The position numbers and the translations under genes were made by a program. The notes under the pieces were generated by a model. That model was not told where the DNA came from and made no database searches. It worked only from the letters and a program-made list of their open reading frames with translations. A stretch of DNA of 64,000 nucleotides from Eledone cirrhosa (lineage: Eukaryota): assembly GCA_964016885.1 (NCBI GenBank), contig OZ024745.1, positions 23,622,001 to 23,686,000 on the forward strand, read 5' to 3'. Shown here piece after piece: positions 25,649 through 37,047 of the stretch; within the stretch, counting starts at the first letter, position 1, and each line of letters opens with the position of its first letter.

Positions 25649-27550
25649 ATGTTAAACGCAGCGAACGAAAATAGTGGTGGGGGGACATCGGTAAGAGTTG
25701 TAAGCTCGCACGCTTTAGTCCCCCCTTCCTTCCCAACTAACGTCATAGAGAAGGAAGGAAAAATTAAAATAAAAACAGACGAATCTGCGGAGAAAAAATA
25801 AAATGACGAAAACACAAATCTGGACTTGGATTCCAACAACGAAAAAAAAAAATTTGAAAAATTGCATGACAATACTAATAACACAAACAAAGACACAACA
25901 AACACAAAAATAACAGTTGAAAATAACACCATATCAGAAAACAAAGCAGACGACAAGATTTCATTTGCACAGAAAACAAAGAAATCTTTGACTTATATAG
26001 CGGAAAAAATTTCAGATGTGGTACGAAGGATCACGGACGCCAAACAATACATAAGTGAAGGAGAGAATGGTATTTTATCGGTAAAAATGCCTCAAGAATT
26101 CACGAAAGACATTGAAAGCCGAACGGTCAAGTTTCGGACCATCAACAACAGTACAAAAAAACCTGAACAGCCTTCTCAAGCAGATATCAAAACAGTACTC
26201 ACAGAAGTACTTAATGAAACCACTTTCATAAGAAAAGACAGACTGTATGGAAGCCTAGCAATTATCATGAAGAACGAATCGGCGGCAAAAAAATGTGCTT
26301 TGTCACCGATTCGTTCGAAAAATTTCACCTTTTATCCATCTTATATGGGGAAAAGAACTCAACGCATATGGCTGGATGCAATGATGCCAGATGTGGACTA
26401 CTGCTGGCTCATAGCTGGCTTCATCGATCCAGTGAATGACAACGTGATTTCCATTGGGAAAACCACAGGCAATGCGTTCAGTGGAACAGGTATAGAGCTG
26501 GTAGTACAAATGAAGCCTGAACGCATCGCCCAACTACCCGACAGAATCCTATTAGAGGACCACGGGTATATAAACATTAGCGTGGAGGGGAGAAGGCCGT
26601 CCTGCCATATCTGTGCAGGCAGAGGGCACCTGAAGGCCGCTTGTCCCCAACTCAACAAAAAGAAAACCCTGCTACCAACACCAGCTCCACCACCACCACA
26701 ACAACAGATAAACAAACAACAAAACTCAGTCTCACCCAACCCGTCCCTCAGTAAAACCACAACACCACCACAACACAAACAGTCACAACACATTACCCCA
26801 AAACAAAATACAGGCCCACCCAACCTCTCACTCAATAAAACAACACAACCACCGCAGACACAACACACAACACAGTCTAACATAGTGACATCCATCTCCC
26901 CCACAAAGAAAACCAACACGGAAACATTACCAGCAAACATACCTCTTCCCTCCAACACTGAAGATAACCCAACGAATTCGGAGGAAGAAACGGAGTCCTT
27001 CAGACAGATTAAAAGGAAAAAAAGAAAGCATGTGCAAAACACACAAGGACAAACAACCCCCACCCAAATCTCAACACAATCCAACAAAACAGAAAACACC
27101 CCTCCAGCAACAAACAAAACCAAACCTGCCCCTCCCCTCTTCGAAACACTCACACCATCGGAAAAAAAGACATTACACTATACTTACATCAACAGAAACA
27201 ATAATAAATTAAATGAACTCATATACAATAATCCTTCGGTACAAACCGAAGGTGTAAACTTTGTTTCGTCAGAAAACTACCCACATTTAAAATTAATAAA
27301 GATCCCAATGAACCTCTACCAAAAACTAAAAAAGGATTTTAAGGAGGACGTAGGACCACCCTCTGTCAAACCCATAAACCGCGTCCTACTAAAAAGCTTT
27401 CCCCCTCCCCTTCCCCTCCCCAACATAACTCCAAACACCCCAACCCCACCACACACTGACGACCCCACACCACCACAAGACACCCCTTCACCCAATACCC
27501 CCGACCCCATGGAAGTCGTGCAACCCGAACCCCGGGAAGCGGAAAGGTAG
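25649..27550 (+). pseudogene. Tx1 element 1 ORF1 (gag-like, zinc knuckle CHICAGRGHLKAAC) with an in-frame TAA at 25799-25801
   Basis: ATG 25649 is in frame with the 25826..27550 ORF, with a single stop at codon 51. Homologous to element 2 ORF1. Confidence 0.85.
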
Positions 27551-27583
27551 GTCTCTACACTCTCCTTCGGCTCTGCCGCCCAC

Positions 27584-30500
27584 ATGGATGTGTTAAGAGT
27601 AGGATGTTTGAATGCACGTGGCCTGGGCTCAACTTGGAAGCAAGCAAAGCTTCTAAATGACCTCAGGTCATGTAGTATAAATGTAATGGTTACCTGTGAG
27701 ACTCGAATCAGCGTCGTGCGGCAGCTGGCCCCCACCTTCGATGACTTTGAGGTGCATGCATCTCTCTGTCAACCTGGAGGTGGGGGTGGGGTTGTCGTAC
27801 TGCTGCAAAAACACCTGGGTCTTGCCGTACAGGTTGTGCACTCGGACCCGGAGGGTCGTTTGTTGGTGCTAGACGTTGGCAGTAGTGAAAGTGCGGCCTT
27901 GAGACTGGTCGCCGTCTACTCCCCTTTCGCAGCTGAACGGCCCGACTTCTTCCAGCGTTTGGAGACTTTTCTGGGAACGTCGCGTTCCCTGCTTCTAGCG
28001 AGGGATTGGAATGACATCCTGGATGCACGTTGGGACTATGCAGGAGCATGTCCTAATAGAGGGGGGTGTAACAGCCTCAAGGGGTTACTCGACCGTTTTA
28101 ACTTGGTCGATAGATATCGACTAGATTTTCCAACTGTGCCTACCTGGACTTGGAGAAACCACAGTGGTCAATCTAGATCGTACTTAGATAGATTCTTAGT
28201 TAGAAGTAAGGATAGGGACATATTAACCTGTCCAGAAATGCGCACGGTTGGCTACACGGATCACAAATTAGTGACCTGCGTGGTCAATCTCGAGAAAACA
28301 CATAGACAGGGTCCCGGTTACTGGAAACTTAATTTGTCTTTACCGGCAAAAGAGACTTACAGAAACCGGATTAGCAGATTAGTTAAGGAGAGGTTGACGG
28401 GTGCAATCGTCAACAACCGATGGTGGGCATCTCTCAAAAGAGAGATTAGAACAGAATCAATAAGTTATAGCAAGATGTTAGCTGCCGATAGGAATAGAAA
28501 CGAGAAAGAATTAACAGGTAAATTAGAAGAGGCAATCAAGAGCGAAGATGTGGCCAGAGTGCTGGCATCGAGGACGGCCTTGAACCAGTTTTTCGATGCT
28601 AAGCACGAAGGCTGCGTCATTCGAAGTAAAATACGTGCTCTAGGTAATGAGGGGGCCAAAGCCGTTGGATGGGCCCGCGTGACAGAAGCTAAGAGTGGAA
28701 ATCGATCCACCATCCGGTCGTTGCAAGACGAAGATGGACGGGTGATCCGGGAGCCTAAGCAGATGTGCGAGGCCTTTCAAAGGCACTTTGCCCGATTGTT
28801 CGGGGGAGGCGAGGGTCCGGGCGGGGGCGTGGATTTCGGTCCATACCTCGACGGCCTGCCGCGTCTCTCGAACGAAGAGGCAGAGTCCTGCGAGGGACCA
28901 ATCTCGGCTGATGAGATCGGAGATGCGCTGAGCCAATGCAGCAGACGCAAATCTCCAGGTCTCGATGGTATACCTTACGAACTTTATTTAGCAATGCCGG
29001 TCTTCTTCTCCGAACTCCTCGAAGCGGTCTACTGCAATGGGCAGCAGAACGGGAGAATTCCTTGCTCTGTAGCCAAGGGCGTAGTCACGCTGGTGAGGAA
29101 GGACGAGAACAAGGGGGATAGTATAAATAATTTTCGGCCCATAACCCTGCTAAACACAGAGTTAAAGATTTTGGCCAAGGTGTTAGCAAAGAGGTTGGCG
29201 CTTGTCGTGGGTGGCCTGGTGGGAGATGCGCAGACATGTGCTATCCCATCCAGGTCCATTCACGATAACCTCCACCTCATGCGATACATCATAGAGAGGG
29301 TTGGGAACAAACCCGGCTTCGGTGGGGCCCTGATCAACTTGGATCAGTCTAAGGCCTTCGATAGGGTCGACCATGGTTACCTGGATGCGGTGCTAGAGGC
29401 GGCTGGGTTCGGTCCTGTTTTCAGAGGCTGGATCACTGCCCTACATAGCAACCACATCTGTTCTAGGATCAAGGTGAACGGCTACCTTTCGAAGCCGTTC
29501 GAAATCACACGATCCATTCGACAGGGGTGCCCTCTCTCCTCCCTTCTGTACGTATTGACTCTCGAACCTTTACTGAGGAAGTTGGAGTTGTTGCAGGGTA
29601 TCCCCCTGGAACCAGGATTGAGCAAAGCGGTGTCGGCCTACGCCGATGACGTAACAGTAATGGTATCAACCGACTCGGAGATCGAGGCGATCGGTACCTT
29701 ACTGGAGGAGTACGAAAGGTTGTCAGGAGCGAAACTGAACCGGGAAAAATCCATCGGGCTGCAACTCGGAACGTGGAGAGGCAGACCGATGCCTCCTGAC
29801 GGTGTCGTCGGACACTGGACGGAGGGCCCGGTAAGGTTGCTTGGGGTCTGGTTTGGACCGGACCTCCAGGTGGAAAAGAACTGGAACGAGGTTACGAACA
29901 AGGTGTTTGCACTAACCCAGAAATGGGCCAAGTGTAAGCTGTCCCTAAAAGGCCGGGCGGAGGTGGCGAACATTTACATAGCGTCCGTCACTTACTACCG
30001 CCTGACTGTCGTGCCTTGCCCTAAGGAAACACTCACCACCATGGAACGCATGCTCTTCCAATTTCTTTGGAAGAAGCGTCCTCCTATGGTGAGAAGATCC
30101 ATCTGCTGCCAACAACCTTCGAAAGGAGGGCTGGGGATGCCGTGGTTGATGATGCGTAGGCACGCATTAAGGCTACGGCACCTACAGGTATTCCTCACTG
30201 GTCAACCGGTGTGGGCTCCGTTCGTGAAACGAGCCTTTCCGAGACTCGTCTCGCTCACCGAGCTACAGTCCTGGGTCAAGCAAAGATCCGGAAAACTGGG
30301 AGACTGGCACACTGAGTGTGCTCAGGCGCTCAGGGCTCTCTGGCAAGCGGGCCAGGCCATCGGTGGAGAATCCACCTCAGCATTCTATAGAGGGCTGGTG
30401 GCTAGCAGGGGCGATGACACCCTTGGAGAGTCGCTGGACATGGAAGAAGACGAACTGGCCAGCCTGTTCGGTAGGACTTTCGGCCCAGGACCAATGGACA

Positions 30501-31021
30501 ACTTCCAGAAGTCACTGGCCTGGCAGTGCTACCGGGGGGCTCTACCCGTTCGAGAGAGGCTTTACAGACACGGGCGCCCGGGCAGGGATCCCTCAAAAAA
30601 GATTTGCCCTAGATGCGTGCGTCACGAAGAAACCGATGCGCACGCATTGGTGCAATGTCCGGGCGTGGCTGATCTGTGGGGCTACGCCGAACGACTGCTG
30701 TCGCGGGTGGCGCCGATTAAATTGACCGCCGAGTCCGTGATGACAATCAAACCGCCTCCCCTCTTCACAAAGGAAGCAAAGGCGGTTTTTCTGTGCGTAA
30801 TAGCCATGTTGAAAGAGGTTGTTTGGTGGACACGATTGAAAGGTCTGAGGTCAGGCAACTTCCACTCTGGCCATAGTCTGGTCTACTTCTTCCGATATCA
30901 CTTCGGAAGAAGGATAAGAATGGAGAGAGAGGTGCTTGGCCACAGGCAGTTTTATGAAAGGTGGGTGATAGTGGCGAGAATGGCTCGTGTAAATGGGCCT
31001 TCTCTGTATACCATCCTGTAG
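27584..31021 (+). CDS. Tx1 element 1 ORF2: APE endonuclease, reverse transcriptase and C-terminal CCHC finger (1145 aa)
   Basis: Motifs CLNARGL, SYLDRF, TDHK, GPGYWKLN, KSPGLDG, FRPITLLN, LDQSKAFDRVDH, RQGCPLS, YADD, GGLG and CPRC..E...HALVQC. The GDWN motif reads RDWN here (28001). Confidence 0.95.
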   Translation: MDVLRVGCLNARGLGSTWKQAKLLNDLRSCSINVMVTCETRISVVRQLAPTFDDFEVHASLCQPGGGGGVVVLLQKHLGLAVQVVHSDPEGRLLVLDVGSSESAALRLVAVYSPFAAERPDFFQRLETFLGTSRSLLLARDWNDILDARWDYAGACPNRGGCNSLKGLLDRFNLVDRYRLDFPTVPTWTWRNHSGQSRSYLDRFLVRSKDRDILTCPEMRTVGYTDHKLVTCVVNLEKTHRQGPGYWKLNLSLPAKETYRNRISRLVKERLTGAIVNNRWWASLKREIRTESISYSKMLAADRNRNEKELTGKLEEAIKSEDVARVLASRTALNQFFDAKHEGCVIRSKIRALGNEGAKAVGWARVTEAKSGNRSTIRSLQDEDGRVIREPKQMCEAFQRHFARLFGGGEGPGGGVDFGPYLDGLPRLSNEEAESCEGPISADEIGDALSQCSRRKSPGLDGIPYELYLAMPVFFSELLEAVYCNGQQNGRIPCSVAKGVVTLVRKDENKGDSINNFRPITLLNTELKILAKVLAKRLALVVGGLVGDAQTCAIPSRSIHDNLHLMRYIIERVGNKPGFGGALINLDQSKAFDRVDHGYLDAVLEAAGFGPVFRGWITALHSNHICSRIKVNGYLSKPFEITRSIRQGCPLSSLLYVLTLEPLLRKLELLQGIPLEPGLSKAVSAYADDVTVMVSTDSEIEAIGTLLEEYERLSGAKLNREKSIGLQLGTWRGRPMPPDGVVGHWTEGPVRLLGVWFGPDLQVEKNWNEVTNKVFALTQKWAKCKLSLKGRAEVANIYIASVTYYRLTVVPCPKETLTTMERMLFQFLWKKRPPMVRRSICCQQPSKGGLGMPWLMMRRHALRLRHLQVFLTGQPVWAPFVKRAFPRLVSLTELQSWVKQRSGKLGDWHTECAQALRALWQAGQAIGGESTSAFYRGLVASRGDDTLGESLDMEEDELASLFGRTFGPGPMDNFQKSLAWQCYRGALPVRERLYRHGRPGRDPSKKICPRCVRHEETDAHALVQCPGVADLWGYAERLLSRVAPIKLTAESVMTIKPPPLFTKEAKAVFLCVIAMLKEVVWWTRLKGLRSGNFHSGHSLVYFFRYHFGRRIRMEREVLGHRQFYERWVIVARMARVNGPSLYTIL

Positions 31022-31235
31022 GTAAAGAAGTAAAGGAGAGGGGAGCACCTTCTCCATGTGCTCCCCGGGCAAAGGATTGCACACTTTTTCGGGGGTGTGT
31101 GCAACCCCCATCACGTCCCCTCCCTTTTGAGGTTATTTTCGATTATTTTCATGTTACACCCTTTTTACTCGATTATATGTAAACTCCCCCTTTGTATTTG
31201 TCTCTTCTTTTTATGCCTTTATGGTAAATAAAGAA

Positions 31236-31263
31236 ATCTATCTATCTATCTATCTATCTATCT
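31236..31263. repeat. (ATCT)7 spacer between the two Tx1 elements
   Basis: Directly visible. Confidence 0.97.
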
Positions 31264-31465
31264 TGATAGAGTAAGACACGCTTCGCATCGGCTCCGCTAT
31301 TCCATCGGGATTTACCCTTACTATTGTAAGTACCGGATAAATTTTTTAGTGCAACACATTTGGAACACTAACCCCTGTTATTTAGGGAAACATTTTTGCA
31401 TTTACCCCCTTTTTAGGGGGTAAAATAAATATCTATTTTTGCCGAAAAATTTCTTTCTTGGCAGC

Positions 31466-33301
31466 ATGGCGGAAAAGATGGCAGACATGTCTGCCATTAG
31501 CTCTGCCACGCCCCCCAAGTCTGAAGAACAAAAAATAATTACAACAAAATTAGACATTGAAACAAACAAACAAAATGAAAAAACAAATGTTAAGGAAAAT
31601 GAGCAAACAGAAAACAAACAAACAGAAAATAATACAAATAACGACAGGGCAACTTTCGCCCAGAAAACAAAGCAATCCATTACATACACACCAATTGACC
31701 TAACTGCCGCCAGAGAAAAACTGGCCGAAGCAAAGAAACATATTGTTTTGGGGGAGAACGGAATGTTTTCCATTAACTCCCCCCCAGAATTCAAGAAAGC
31801 CAGAGCAGAAAACACAGTTATATACAGAACTATACTGAACCAGACAAGAAAGCCAGCACAGCCCAGCCAAATGGAAATAGAGTTAGTCCTAAAAGACTAT
31901 ATGAAGAATATTCTCTTCATACGAAAGGACCGACTCTATGGCAGCATTTCGGTCCTAACAAGAGACAAAGAAACGGCGGAGAAGCTTTCCCTAAGCCCAC
32001 TCTCGTCGACAACATATAGCTTCTATCCCTCCTACATGGGTAGAAGAACACAGAGAGTAAAAGTAAAAACAATGCTGCCCACAATGGACTTCTGGTGGGC
32101 TATTGCTGGCTTCATTGATATGGGCGAAGACACTATGCTGTCAATGGGGAAGGCAACTGGAGATGCGTTCCTGGGAATGGGCCTCGACATACTAGTCCAA
32201 ATGAGGCCCGAAAGAATAGCACAAATCCCGGATCGCATCTGGCTGGATGACCTTACCCCAATAGACATAATTGTAGAGGGGAGAAGACCAGCATGCTATT
32301 TATGCATGGAAAGGGGACACGTTAAGGCTAACTGCCCGAAACGTATCCCCCAAAAAGGACTATTGCCCACACCCACCACAAACAGTACACCAGCACCACC
32401 CACCTCCAAAAATACACTAATACCACACACAGCAAACAAAATACAGACACCACCAACCACAAACACAACACAAACATCACCACCACCAGCACCAAACACA
32501 AGCACGACACAAAAATCACCACCACCAACCACAACACAAACATCACCACCACCATCACCAACCACAAGCACGACACAAACATTACCACCACCACCACCAC
32601 AAAACCCATTCCAAACAAATAATAAAAAAAACAGTAACAAATCTACCCCTCCCGCAAAAAAAAAACAACCACACAACACGTCCCTCCCACCTAGCGCTGA
32701 AGAGTTTCCCCCAACTTCTGAAGAAGAAGGAGGAGAAGCCTTCAGACAAGTTAAAAGAAAAAAAAGAAAACACACACCCAGCACACCACAAATAACCCAC
32801 ACACAAACACCAACTCCAATCAAAAACACCCCACCCTCAACAAACAAAAATAAATCTGCGCCTCCCCTCTCCGAAACATTGACAGCATCACAAAAAAAGA
32901 CGTTGTAATACACATATATAAATAAAGAAAACAAAAAACTGGTTAAATTAATAAACAATAACCCTATGGTGCAGACCGAAGGGCCAAACTTTATCTCAAC
33001 AGAGAACTTCACCCATTTAAAAATGATAAAGGTCCCTCTGGACCTTTATCGTTCCTTAAAAGAACAATTTAGACGGGACGTGAGCCCCCCCTGTTTAAAA
33101 CCGTTGAATCGCGTCCTCTTGAAAGATTTCCCCATAACCGCCCCTCTCCCTGACACAACTCCAAATACCCCAACCCCACCACACACGTGTACCCCCACAC
33201 CACCACAAAACATCCCTCCACCCAACACACCTGATGCCATGGAAATTACGCAACCCGGAGAGGTAAGTGCTTTTCTTTCTTCACTTTCAACACCAAAATA
33301 G
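31466..33301 (+). pseudogene. Tx1 element 2 ORF1 (zinc knuckle CYLCMERGHVKANC) with an in-frame TAA at 32906-32908
   Basis: ORFs 31439..32908 and 32966..33301 are in one frame. KKTL*YTYIN aligns with KKTLHYTYIN of element 1. Confidence 0.88.
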
Positions 33302-36300
33302 ATCAATTGAGAGTTGGCTGTTTGAACGCGCGTGGCCTGAGCTCAGCTTGGAAGCAAGCAAAGCTTCTAAGTGACCTCAGGTCACAAAGTATAGATGTGA
33401 TGGTTGTTTGCGAGAGTCGGATCAGCAGCGTGAGACAGCTGGCGCCCGCCTTCGATGACTTTGAGATGCACGCATCTCTCTGTCAACCCGGAGGCGGCGG
33501 GGGAGTTGCCGTACTGCTGGATAAACGTCTGACTCTCGACGTACAGATTGTTCACTCGGACCCGGGGGGTCGATTACTGGTGCTGGACGTCGGAGGTGGT
33601 GAAGGCGGGGCTTTCAGACTGGTCGGTCTTTATGCTCCCTTCGGGGCGGAAAGAGCCGACTTCTTCCAACGTCTGGAGACTTTTCTAGGAACGTCGCGTT
33701 CCCTGCTTTTAGTGGGGGACTGGAATGGAATCCTAGATGCGCGTTGGGACTATGCAGGGGCATGTCCCGATAGAGGGGGGTGTAGCAGCCTCAAGGGGTT
33801 ACTCGATCGATTCGACCTGGTCGATAGATTTCGACTAGATTGTCCAACTGCGCCAACCTGGACCTGGGCAAACCGCAGTGGACAATCTAGATCGTACCTA
33901 GATAGGTTTTTGGTTAGGAGTAAGGATAGGGACGTATTTAGTTGTCCAGAACTGATCATGGTTGGCTATTCAGATCACAAATTAGTGACCTGCGTGGTCA
34001 ACCTTGATAGAACGCATAGACAGGGTCCCGGTTACTGGAAGATGAACTTGTCCTTACCGACAAAGAAAGATTACAGAAACCGGATTAGTAGCTTAGTTAA
34101 GATGCGGTTGACGGGAGCGATCGTCAACAGTAGGTGGTGGATATCTCTAAAGAGAGAGATTAGAGTAAGTTCGATAGGTTACAGTAAGGAACTAGCGGCG
34201 AATAGAAATAGGAGGGAAAGGGAGTTAACAGATAAACTAGAAGAGGCGATTAGGAGCGGAGACGTAGCCAGAGTGTTAGCGACGAGAACGGCATTGAGCC
34301 AGTTCTTTGACGCGAAGCACGAAGGCTGCGTTGTCCGAAGTAAAATACGTGCTTTAGGAAACGAGGGGACCAAAGCTGTTAGCTGGGCCCGCGTGACAGA
34401 AGCCAAGAGTGGGATTAAATCCACCATTCGGTCTTTGCGAGACCAGGATGGACGGGTGATCCTTGAACCTGAGCGAATGTGCGAGACCTTTCAAAGGCAC
34501 TTTGCTCGACTGTTCGGAGGTGGCGGGGGGCCGGACGGGGATGTGGACTTCGGTCCATACCTCGACGGTCTACCGCGTCTTTCGAGCGGCGAAGCGGAGT
34601 GCTGCGAAGGGCCAATCACAGCCACTGAAATCGGGGAAGCGCTCAGCCAATGCAGCAGACGCAAATCCCCGGGTCTCGATGGTCTACCATACGAACTTTA
34701 TTTAGCTATGCCGGTCTTGTTCTCCGAACTCCTCGAGGCTGTCTATTGCAACTGGCAACAGAACGGGAGAATTCCCTGTTCCGTGACCAAGGGCGTGGTC
34801 ACGCTAGTGAGGAAGGACGAGAGCAAGGGGGACGACTTAAGTAACTTTAGGCCCATAACTCTGCTGAATGCAGAGTTACAGATTTTGGCCAAGGTGTTGG
34901 CGAAGAGGTTGGCGCTTGTGGTGGGTGGTTTGGTGGGAGACGCGCAGACATGCACTATCCCGTCCAGGTCCATTCACGACAACCTCCACCTCATGCGATA
35001 CATCATAGAGAGGGTTGGCTACGAACCCGGCTTTGGTGGGGCCCTGATCAACTTGGATCAATCTAAGGCGTTCGATAGGGTCGACCATGGTTACCTGGAT
35101 GCGGTGCTAGCGGCGGCGGGCTTCGGACCCGTTTTCAGGGGCTGGATTTCTGCCATGCACAGTGGCAACATCTACTCTAGGATTAAAGTAAACGGCTACC
35201 TCTCGGAGCCGTTTCAAATCACCCGATCCATCAGACAGGGGTGCCCCCTCTCCTCCCTTCTGTACGTATTGACTCTCGAGCCACTGCTGCGGAAGTTGGA
35301 GTTGCTGCGGGGCATACCCCTGGAACCGGGATTGCACAAAGTGGTCTCGGCCTATGCCGACGACGTAACAGTAATGGTGGCGGACGCCTCGGAAATCGGG
35401 GCGATCGCCACCCTACTGGAGGAATACGAAAGGCTGACGGGGGCTAAGCTGAACCAGGACAAGTCAGTCGGTTTGCAACTCGGAACGTGGAGGGGCAAAC
35501 CGATGCCGTTAGACGGTGTCGTCGGGCGGTGGACGGAGGGCCCGGTGAAGCTGCTCGGGGTCTGGTTCGGACCGGACCTCCAGGTGGAGAAGAATTGGGG
35601 CGAGGTGACGAGCAGGGTGTTTGCGCTGACCCAGAAGTGGGCCAAGTGCAAACTATCACTGAAAGGTCGGGCGGAGGTGACGAACGCTTACATAGCGTCC
35701 GTCATCTACTACCGCCTGACCGTCGTGCCTTGCCCCAAGGAAAAGCTCACCATCATGGAACGCATGCTCTTCCAGTTCCTCTGGAAGAAGCGGCCTCCCA
35801 TGGTGAGGAGATCCATCTGCTGCCAGCACCCTTCGAAAGGAGGGCTGGGTATGCCGTGGCTGTTGATGCGTAGGCACGCATTGAGGCTACGGCATCTACA
35901 GGTATTCCTCAACGGTCAGCCGGTGTGGGCCCCGTTTGTGAGGCGAGCCTTCCCACAGCTCGTCTCGCTCACCGAACTGCAATCCTGGGTGAAGCAAAGA
36001 CCGAGAAAACTGGGCAACTGGCACACTGAGTGTGCCCAGGCGCTCACGGCTATCTGGCAAGCGGACCCGACTGTCAGTGGAGAATCTACCTCGACATTCT
36101 ATAGAGGGTTGGTGGCTAGCAGGGGCGACGACACCCTTGGAGAGTCGCTAGGCATGGAGGAGGACGAACTGGCCAGCCTGTTCGGTAGAACTTTCGGCCC
36201 GGGACCCATGGACAACTTCCAGAGGTCCCTAGCCTGGCAGTGTTACCGGGGGGCTCTGCCCGTTCGAGAAAAGCTCTACAGACACGGGCGCCCGGGCAGG

Positions 36301-36735
36301 GATCCCGCGAAAAAGATCTGTCCCAGATGCGTGCGCGACGAGGAAACCGTTGCGCATGCACTGGTACACTGCCCGGGCGTTGCCGATCTGTGGGGCTACG
36401 TCGAACGACTGCTGTCGCGTGTGGCGCCGATTCGATTAACCGCCGAGTCTGTGGTGAACATCAAGCCGCCTCCTCCCTTCAGAAATGAAGCAGAGGCGGT
36501 CTTTCTGTGCGTAATAGCCATGATGAAAGAGGTTGTGTGGTGGACGCGCCTGAAAGGTCTGAGGTCGGGTGACTTTCTCTCCGGCCATCACCTGGTTTAC
36601 TTCTTCCGATACCACTTCGGAAGAAGAATCAGGATGGAGAGAGAAGTGCTTGGTCCCAGACAGTTTTATGAAAGGTGGGTGAAAGAAGCGAGAATGGCCC
36701 GTGTAAATGGGCCTTCTCTCTACATTGTTCTGTAG
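33298..36735 (+). CDS. Tx1 element 2 ORF2: APE, RT and CCHC finger; open frame, but ATA at the position of the element 1 ATG
   Basis: All motifs present (GDWN, SDHK, YADD). ata-gat-caa-ttg-aga-gtt aligns with atg-gat-gtg-tta-aga-gta. Confidence 0.92.
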   Translation: MDQLRVGCLNARGLSSAWKQAKLLSDLRSQSIDVMVVCESRISSVRQLAPAFDDFEMHASLCQPGGGGGVAVLLDKRLTLDVQIVHSDPGGRLLVLDVGGGEGGAFRLVGLYAPFGAERADFFQRLETFLGTSRSLLLVGDWNGILDARWDYAGACPDRGGCSSLKGLLDRFDLVDRFRLDCPTAPTWTWANRSGQSRSYLDRFLVRSKDRDVFSCPELIMVGYSDHKLVTCVVNLDRTHRQGPGYWKMNLSLPTKKDYRNRISSLVKMRLTGAIVNSRWWISLKREIRVSSIGYSKELAANRNRRERELTDKLEEAIRSGDVARVLATRTALSQFFDAKHEGCVVRSKIRALGNEGTKAVSWARVTEAKSGIKSTIRSLRDQDGRVILEPERMCETFQRHFARLFGGGGGPDGDVDFGPYLDGLPRLSSGEAECCEGPITATEIGEALSQCSRRKSPGLDGLPYELYLAMPVLFSELLEAVYCNWQQNGRIPCSVTKGVVTLVRKDESKGDDLSNFRPITLLNAELQILAKVLAKRLALVVGGLVGDAQTCTIPSRSIHDNLHLMRYIIERVGYEPGFGGALINLDQSKAFDRVDHGYLDAVLAAAGFGPVFRGWISAMHSGNIYSRIKVNGYLSEPFQITRSIRQGCPLSSLLYVLTLEPLLRKLELLRGIPLEPGLHKVVSAYADDVTVMVADASEIGAIATLLEEYERLTGAKLNQDKSVGLQLGTWRGKPMPLDGVVGRWTEGPVKLLGVWFGPDLQVEKNWGEVTSRVFALTQKWAKCKLSLKGRAEVTNAYIASVIYYRLTVVPCPKEKLTIMERMLFQFLWKKRPPMVRRSICCQHPSKGGLGMPWLLMRRHALRLRHLQVFLNGQPVWAPFVRRAFPQLVSLTELQSWVKQRPRKLGNWHTECAQALTAIWQADPTVSGESTSTFYRGLVASRGDDTLGESLGMEEDELASLFGRTFGPGPMDNFQRSLAWQCYRGALPVREKLYRHGRPGRDPAKKICPRCVRDEETVAHALVHCPGVADLWGYVERLLSRVAPIRLTAESVVNIKPPPPFRNEAEAVFLCVIAMMKEVVWWTRLKGLRSGDFLSGHHLVYFFRYHFGRRIRMEREVLGPRQFYERWVKEARMARVNGPSLYIVL

Positions 36736-37047
36736 GTGAAGAAGTGAAGAGGAAAGGGGGAGCGCCTCCTCTCTGGGCTTCCCCCGCGAAAAGAGTTGCA
36801 CACTTTTCGGGGGTATGTGCAATCCCCAACACGCCCCCTCCCTTTTGAGGACTTTTTATTGTTATATTATTATTGTTATTCCTTTTTCTTTACTCGATTT
36901 ATGTAAACTCCCCCACTGTGTAAATGTCCCCTTCTTTTGTGCCCTCGTGGCAAATAAATAGAAATTTATCTATCTATATCCCCCTCTTATTATTAAAAAG
37001 AAAGTTATCTATCTATCTATATCCCCCTCTTATTATTTCTCATTCAT

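Follow-up and report, generated by a model that had tools for sequence, protein, structure and literature searches.

A conserved 5′ splice site at the end of ORF1 and a candidate ORF2-spanning intron in L1/Tx1-group LINEs of Eledone cirrhosa

Two head-to-tail LINEs

The window, a 64,000-nt stretch of Eledone cirrhosa contig OZ024745.1 (positions 23,622,001 to 23,686,000), contains two LINEs arranged head to tail at 25420–31263 (element 1) and 31264 to about 36975 (element 2). Both lie on the plus strand, and each carries an ORF1 and an ORF2. Element 1 is a near full-length L1/Tx1-group LINE that terminates in an (ATCT)n tail. Its ORF1 is open over 582 residues (25802–27550) and includes a CCHC knuckle. 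A predicted phase-2 5′ splice site (27544–27552) overlaps the ORF1 stop codon (27548–27550) and is followed by a pyrimidine-rich spacer (27553–27583) ahead of the ORF2 ATG. ORF2 (27584–31021) encodes 1145 residues and is composed of an AP endonuclease, a reverse transcriptase (RT), and a C-terminal zinc domain. A candidate 3′ splice site (31000–31022) is formed by the ORF2 stop TAG and the following G, and ranks 8 among 255 AGs. The 3′ UTR (31022–31235) contains a purine-rich run, three predicted hairpins, and an AATAAA at 31227. In the window copy of element 1, the probable ORF1 start near 25649 (region 25649–25800) is out of frame. An A-run at 25794–25800, upstream of the open frame, differs in length among contigs through indels.

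Element 2 belongs to a second young family. Its ORF1 spans 31466–33301 and is interrupted in the window by a private premature stop (32906–32908), where 28 of 29 close copies have C. The predicted 5′ splice site (33260–33268) is in phase 0 and lies 12 codons ahead of the ORF1 stop. ORF2 (33298–36735) comprises 1145 codons and starts with ATA rather than ATG, its start overlapping the ORF1 stop. The candidate 3′ splice site (36714–36736) ranks 2 of 263 AGs when scored in a family copy. The 3′ UTR (36736–36960) has hairpins as in element 1 and an AATAAA at 36953. Two-sided change at the hairpins is slight, being seen in 1 of 23 pairs among eight sequences, and a search of Rfam gave no matches.

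Both elements are L1/Tx1-group non-LTR retrotransposons with an ORF2 and a separate ORF1. Pfam RVT_1 scores above its cut-off in both ORF2s, Exo_endo_phos passes it in element 2 but not in element 1, and zf-RVT falls just under it in both. The closest solved structure to ORF2 is that of human L1 ORF2p (E 1e-48). A CX2CX4HX4C motif is present in both ORF1s; zf-CCHC matches them below cut-off (E 0.006–0.09), and the Atlas hits of ORF1 (0.90–0.91) are to CCHC and ZCCHC3-like clusters. A search for ORF1 homologs gave no match at E 0.001. Placement in Tx1 rather than L1 is plausible. In the RT tree, the only row labelled TX1 (P0007) lies close to the group without belonging to it, and the nodes that join the two are poorly supported. 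A search with an outside protein of 43% identity revealed no additional clade. An octopus repeat annotation names 13 recently active L1-Tx1 families (PMC13282606), and a search of an octopus LINE expression paper gave no match for Tx1 or splicing (PMC9115989).

In the 3.0-Gb genome, both families are young, with 99–100% identity among the 40 best of 1,344 and of 1,285 candidates, respectively. The element 1 family has 612 exact unspliced donor copies, and 16,333 copies of the wider clade match a degenerate pattern of the ORF2 end. The two elements share 85% identity in the ORF2 protein and 70% at fourfold sites.

The donor at the end of ORF1

The original prediction held that each element has a strong 5′ splice site at the end of ORF1, although the sequence around it is otherwise dissimilar. 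The donor GT is indeed found at 27547 in element 1 (AAG|GTAGGT) and at 33263 in element 2 (GAG|GTAAGT). By our own rough score of U1 pairing, the donor is among the top five GTs in all 20 elements scored, and ranks first, ties included, of 226–341 GT sites in 12 of them. The spacers, however, are homologous, and can be aligned if a 14-nt indel is placed immediately before the donor. Because the spacers are alignable and the ORF2 proteins are 85% identical, the recurrence of the signals in two copies is a weak argument by itself.

Conservation was assessed in representatives picked by eye for variety from the first 100 genome matches to each pattern, mostly on contig C1, together with further fetched copies. 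Loci with both ORF2 ends were kept, 20 at first and 24 later. A chimera (L101), a copy with a deletion (L127), and a copy lacking the spacer (L110) were left out, and the H representative was replaced by a younger copy, Hy. Between the deepest branches, fourfold-site identity is 48–55%.

All 24 subfamily representatives contain the 5′ splice site motif, with its G|GT located 25–56 nt ahead of the ORF2 start. The −1G, +1G, and +2T are invariant in the 24, positions +3 and +4 are occupied by A or G only, and +5G and +6T are each present in 22. The core from −2 to +6 requires 12 parsimony steps, where the rate at fourfold sites would predict 23.9 (P 0.019), whereas most of the flanking columns take 4–10 steps each; no change at all is seen at 32 of 261 fourfold sites. 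These donor columns are biased, as the search for donors itself relied on a donor-like match in the 60–70 nt before ORF2, and the subfamilies are not independent. Counted by eye, the donor precedes about 96 of the first 100 of 2,538 ORF2 starts.

The donor is in phase 2 in element 1 and most families, in phase 1 in V3/V11/I2, D1, and G, and in phase 0 in element 2. Since phases 1 and 0 also occur, it is not merely an Arg codon followed by a stop. The donor exceeds what chance would give, and a conserved 5′ splice site stands at the end of the structural gene. Its retention in all three phases and its presence in all 24 representatives argue for a U1-binding site under selection.

The acceptor at the end of ORF2

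The ORF2 stop was proposed to double as an acceptor. In both elements a TAG (31019–31021 and 36733–36735) follows a pyrimidine-rich run and precedes a G, as proposed, but a good acceptor rank is limited to one branch. The run itself is made of the codons for P-S-L-Y. Acceptors were scored roughly, with generic frequencies rather than a model trained on this host.

In the D/E branch, which holds both window elements, 11 of 14 representatives have an AG, at the ORF2 stop or 7 nt before it, that is among the two best of about 250 downstream AGs. The best AG is the one 7 nt upstream, not the stop itself, in 9 of these 11 cases; this upstream AG is the predicted acceptor in V5, V6, D, K, and M. Element 1 (rank 8), V2 (16), and V1E (32) rank lower. 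The ranks in deeper branches are 19–43 in V3, 35–43 in H, and 23–92 in F. The F family ends in TAA, without an AG at the stop, yet retains a full donor; it accounts for 19 of the first 100 of the 16,333 ORF2 ends and for about 1,645 donors net of control. Among older relatives of F, the base after TAG is A, C, or T, so the +1 G is lacking. As to loss of either site in sister families, the check proposed originally, the donor is kept in 24 of 24 while the acceptor fails in the TAA-ending branch.

Synonymous randomisation of the codons, the stop, and the next base gave P values of 0.011–0.036 in 12 of 25 rows (0.036 for element 1 and 0.016 for element 2), which largely reflect TAG then G alone; in the F branch P is 0.33–0.52. 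The last 25 codons of ORF2 show 0.56 of the expected synonymous change, the fourth-lowest window, and two windows in the RT core are lower still. The third base of the stop changed once, which is unremarkable, as 26 of 60 twofold purine sites take at most one step. The acceptor exceeds chance only in part, since conserved AGs are common: 74 AG sites are shared by at least 85% of the 24 representatives. The D/E branch combines a good acceptor, a purine-rich run, hairpins, and a poly(A) signal, and these constitute a candidate last exon of roughly 210 nt. Sequence comparison lends moderate, non-independent support to donor–acceptor pairing in the D/E branch, and the pairing fails in the TAA-ending branch.

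Reading frame across the predicted junction

If the join is in use, a stop is expected in the phase of the donor. As originally described, joining the two sites in element 1 would give a protein ending in ...EAER, the same as unspliced, and in the element 2 family one ending in ...QPGEVKK in place of ...QPGEVSAFLSSLSTPK. In 11 of 18 subfamilies the donor's phase meets a stop within three codons, compared with 8 of 36 for the remaining phases (permutation P 0.031). For decayed copies, the frame of the family served to set the phase. With close relatives collapsed, 8 of 14 match (P 0.10). The five phase-1 subfamilies all match, with differing sequences. The misses are V2, K, M1, D2, H, F, and N2; as a post hoc rescue for K, M1, and D2, use of the upstream AG would let ORF1 terminate at the stop codon of ORF2.

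The downstream exon had also been said to keep its stops through two TAA/TGA swaps between the elements. The second swap is polymorphic within the element 1 family: TGA is found in all five element-1-type rows among the first 100 of the 16,333 ORF2 ends, whereas the 29 nearest copies are identical to the window there.

Search for spliced genomic copies

It had been suggested that the spliced RNA could seed HAL1-like half-LINEs. No precisely deleted copy was found in five subfamily groups, a pool of about 4,000 full-length copies. This size is an estimate, the sum of 612, 1,645, and about 27% and 46% of 2,538, with the shares judged by eye. An exact junction search of the genome gave no match for either window family, compared with the 612 unspliced donors of element 1. 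Variant junctions gave four matches for element 1, none spliced, and one for element 2, unspliced. Among the matches for V1/V2/M (8), F (7), and D1 (14), none is joined to the ORF2 end, and a generic junction pattern matched six times, as did its control. Exact patterns miss mutated copies and acceptors that share the third or fourth base of the donor, and the groups covered were those of element 1, element 2, V1/V2/M, F, and D1. When four contig sets were compared with element 1, no donor-to-stop joint was present among the 15 joints listed (126 more were counted), although contigs cannot show absence.

The first 100 of 1,417 matches to the 3′ UTR hairpins all follow ORF2 sequence, and no SINE-like partner is among them. 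Efficient trans-mobilisation is therefore not indicated, and the failure to find spliced copies counts for less as evidence against splicing. L1 proteins are described as acting mainly in cis (PMC5860796). Given cis action and no SINE-like partner, the lack of spliced copies in the groups searched rules out abundant half-LINE seeding but speaks only weakly against splicing itself. Half-LINE seeding is thus unsupported, and the original interpretation as a whole is partly supported.

A predicted ORF2-spanning intron and its alternatives

We favor, with a probability of about 45%, a conserved and likely U1-bound donor of the copia/EVADE type, with partial ORF2-skipping splicing in the D/E branch. 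U1 snRNP would bind the donor at the last codons of ORF1, and part of the D/E-branch transcripts would be spliced from there to the acceptor at the ORF2 end, yielding an ORF1-only mRNA. This mRNA might supply surplus ORF1 protein, while the unspliced RNA would serve as ORF2 message and template. With ORF2p preferring its own RNA in cis, the spliced RNA would not be copied back into DNA. The same U1 site may also shield the full-length RNA from early 3′-end formation, as in EVADE; such protection would explain why the donor is retained in branches with a poor acceptor.

In Drosophila copia, a spliced gag RNA is produced by removal of an intron of about 3 kb (PMC5580714). Similarly, the intron predicted here, also roughly 3 kb, would remove the enzyme-coding part and leave a structural-protein mRNA with a normal 3′ end. 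However, copia is an LTR element with a single gag-pol frame and a demonstrated splice, whereas here the element is a non-LTR LINE, its ORF1 has its own stop, and the splice is predicted. A broader and more tentative proposal is that a LINE clade independently evolved the copia strategy. The whole endonuclease-RT gene would then be a regulated intron, with donor phase and downstream stop co-adjusting, and host splicing would set the ORF1p:ORF2p ratio, perhaps switching mobility by tissue.

The strongest alternative, although we consider it rather unlikely, is that the donor binds U1 without any splice to the ORF2 end. U1 would keep the A-rich ORF1 from being cleaved and polyadenylated too early, or would stabilise an intronless RNA in some other way, and the "acceptor" would consist of P-S-L codons and an inherited TAG. 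This accounts for donors that persist where the acceptor is lost and for the failure to find spliced genomic copies in the groups searched, and it has precedents. In the Arabidopsis Ty1/copia element EVADE, one conserved donor serves both splicing to the shGAG RNA and protection from early termination (PMC5580714). As in EVADE, the donor here is of U1 type and better conserved than the acceptor, and a double role in splicing and in blocking premature termination is proposed for it. EVADE differs in having a short intron followed by early termination, whereas the intron predicted here would span all of ORF2. In HIV-1, the major splice donor is reviewed as suppressing the 5′ poly(A) site (PMC12789967). 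The LINEs resemble it in that a U1 site, here predicted, lies downstream of poly(A) hexamers in a retroelement RNA: AATAAA or ATTAAA occurs 200–360 nt upstream of the donor in most representatives. Unlike in HIV-1, these hexamers show no established enrichment or conservation as a poly(A) site, with 23 observed against 17.4 expected upstream and 6 against 9.3 downstream. As hexamers near the donor are not clearly enriched, the U1-only explanation has no positive signal of its own, and under it the acceptor ranks and the phase matching would be coincidental.

It is improbable that the signals have no function and are by-products of coding sequence, an Arg codon and a stop codon inherited by descent. 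The phase-2 donor consensus automatically spells R-stop, the selection of donors by a donor-like match biases the columns, and the P value of the core is only 0.019. The motif nevertheless persists in phases 1 and 0, where it no longer reads Arg-stop, and its variation is limited to U1-compatible variants. In addition, positions +5 and +6 are non-coding in phase-2 families and still take only two steps each, and by U1 pairing the donor comes out at or near the top in each 5.6-kb element.

We see even less reason to expect that the donor is spliced to another acceptor, within ORF2, late in the 3′ UTR, or in downstream host sequence. A strong T-rich acceptor-like site does lie 160–185 nt into the 3′ UTR of several F-branch representatives (L120, L195, and L212), but no strong acceptor common to all branches is present anywhere in ORF2 (best mean score 2.1). 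One D-family copy, L267 (G000:C3:364829125, minus strand), joins the donor region to ORF2 codon 31. This joint would be a precise GT-AG splice only if the copy came from an extra-G subfamily. Because L267 agrees with plain D1 at 18 of the 25 diagnostic sites, a 2-nt microhomology deletion is more likely, and a precise splice was rejected.

A short intron of 40–60 nt fusing ORF1 in frame to ORF2, hinted at by the pyrimidine-rich spacer and an in-frame AG in ORF2 codon 5 of phase-2 families such as element 1, is dismissed as most improbable, for element 2 and the young H family lack an in-frame AG, the ORF2 ATG is retained in nearly all families, and the fused RNA would copy itself in cis, yet the element 1, V1/V2/M, and F variant searches caught no such genomic copy.

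Relation to other LINEs

The favored splice from the ORF1 end to the ORF2 end would differ from the events described for human L1, in which splicing to SpORF2 and SpIREs removes the 5′ UTR or ORF1 and leaves ORF2 (PMC2896524; PMC5860796). Genomic copies of such spliced RNAs, considered dead ends, amount to about 2% of full-length L1 (PMC2896524; PMC5860796). In both cases the splice sites lie in the LINE's own RNA, functional in L1 and predicted here. In contrast to L1, the donor here follows ORF1 and persists in deep lineages, and the groups searched yielded no spliced copy. HAL1 half-L1s are genomic non-autonomous families (PMC5753468). The predicted ORF1-only product has the same coding content as HAL1, but no ORF1-only genomic family was found among the subfamilies searched.

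LINEs have been taken as intronless, with splicing as a liability (PMC5860796), and the LINE splicing described so far in these sources removes ORF1 and is unselected (PMC2896524; PMC5860796). No report of a LINE with an ORF2-spanning intron was found among the open-access full texts searched. Splice sites have reportedly been noted in TART, and splice sites in a zebrafish LINE are said to have been the subject of a study. Selection that maintains a consensus donor in a clade numbering at least 16,000 copies would mean that this LINE needs the spliceosome or U1 for something. Either splicing or U1 protection would provide a testable handle on the balance of ORF1p and ORF2p or on escape from early polyadenylation. 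The families are young, near-identical, and intact, which makes the hypothesis readily testable.

Other features of the elements

Several further observations concern the insertion habit and coding arrangement of the elements. First, ends in (ATCT)n are found in the window (25338–25424 and 31236–31263) and at loci L031–L060, and members of the same or a sister family often follow each other head to tail about 5.8–6.2 kb apart. These arrays suggest that the elements favor (ATCT)n or one another's tails. Many Tx1 members insert at specific sequences. Second, L101 and L255 are apparent subfamily chimeras, with the 5′ end from one subfamily and the 3′ end from another, pointing to template switching or recombination.

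Third, in the element 2 family the intact ORF2 starts with ATA, not ATG (window 33298–33301), in 29 of 29 copies and in both donor variants. The ORF1 of element 2 extends 12 codons beyond the donor, and its stop overlaps the ATA. By analogy, this overlap looks like AUG-independent termination-reinitiation, a process reviewed in PMC5972666.

Finally, synonymous positions in ORF2 codons 26–29 (D-L-R-S; window about 27659–27670) are near-invariant in 25 representatives, and codons 526–600 in the RT core show the lowest synonymous change in ORF2. RNA signals or recombination between families are possible sources of this constraint.
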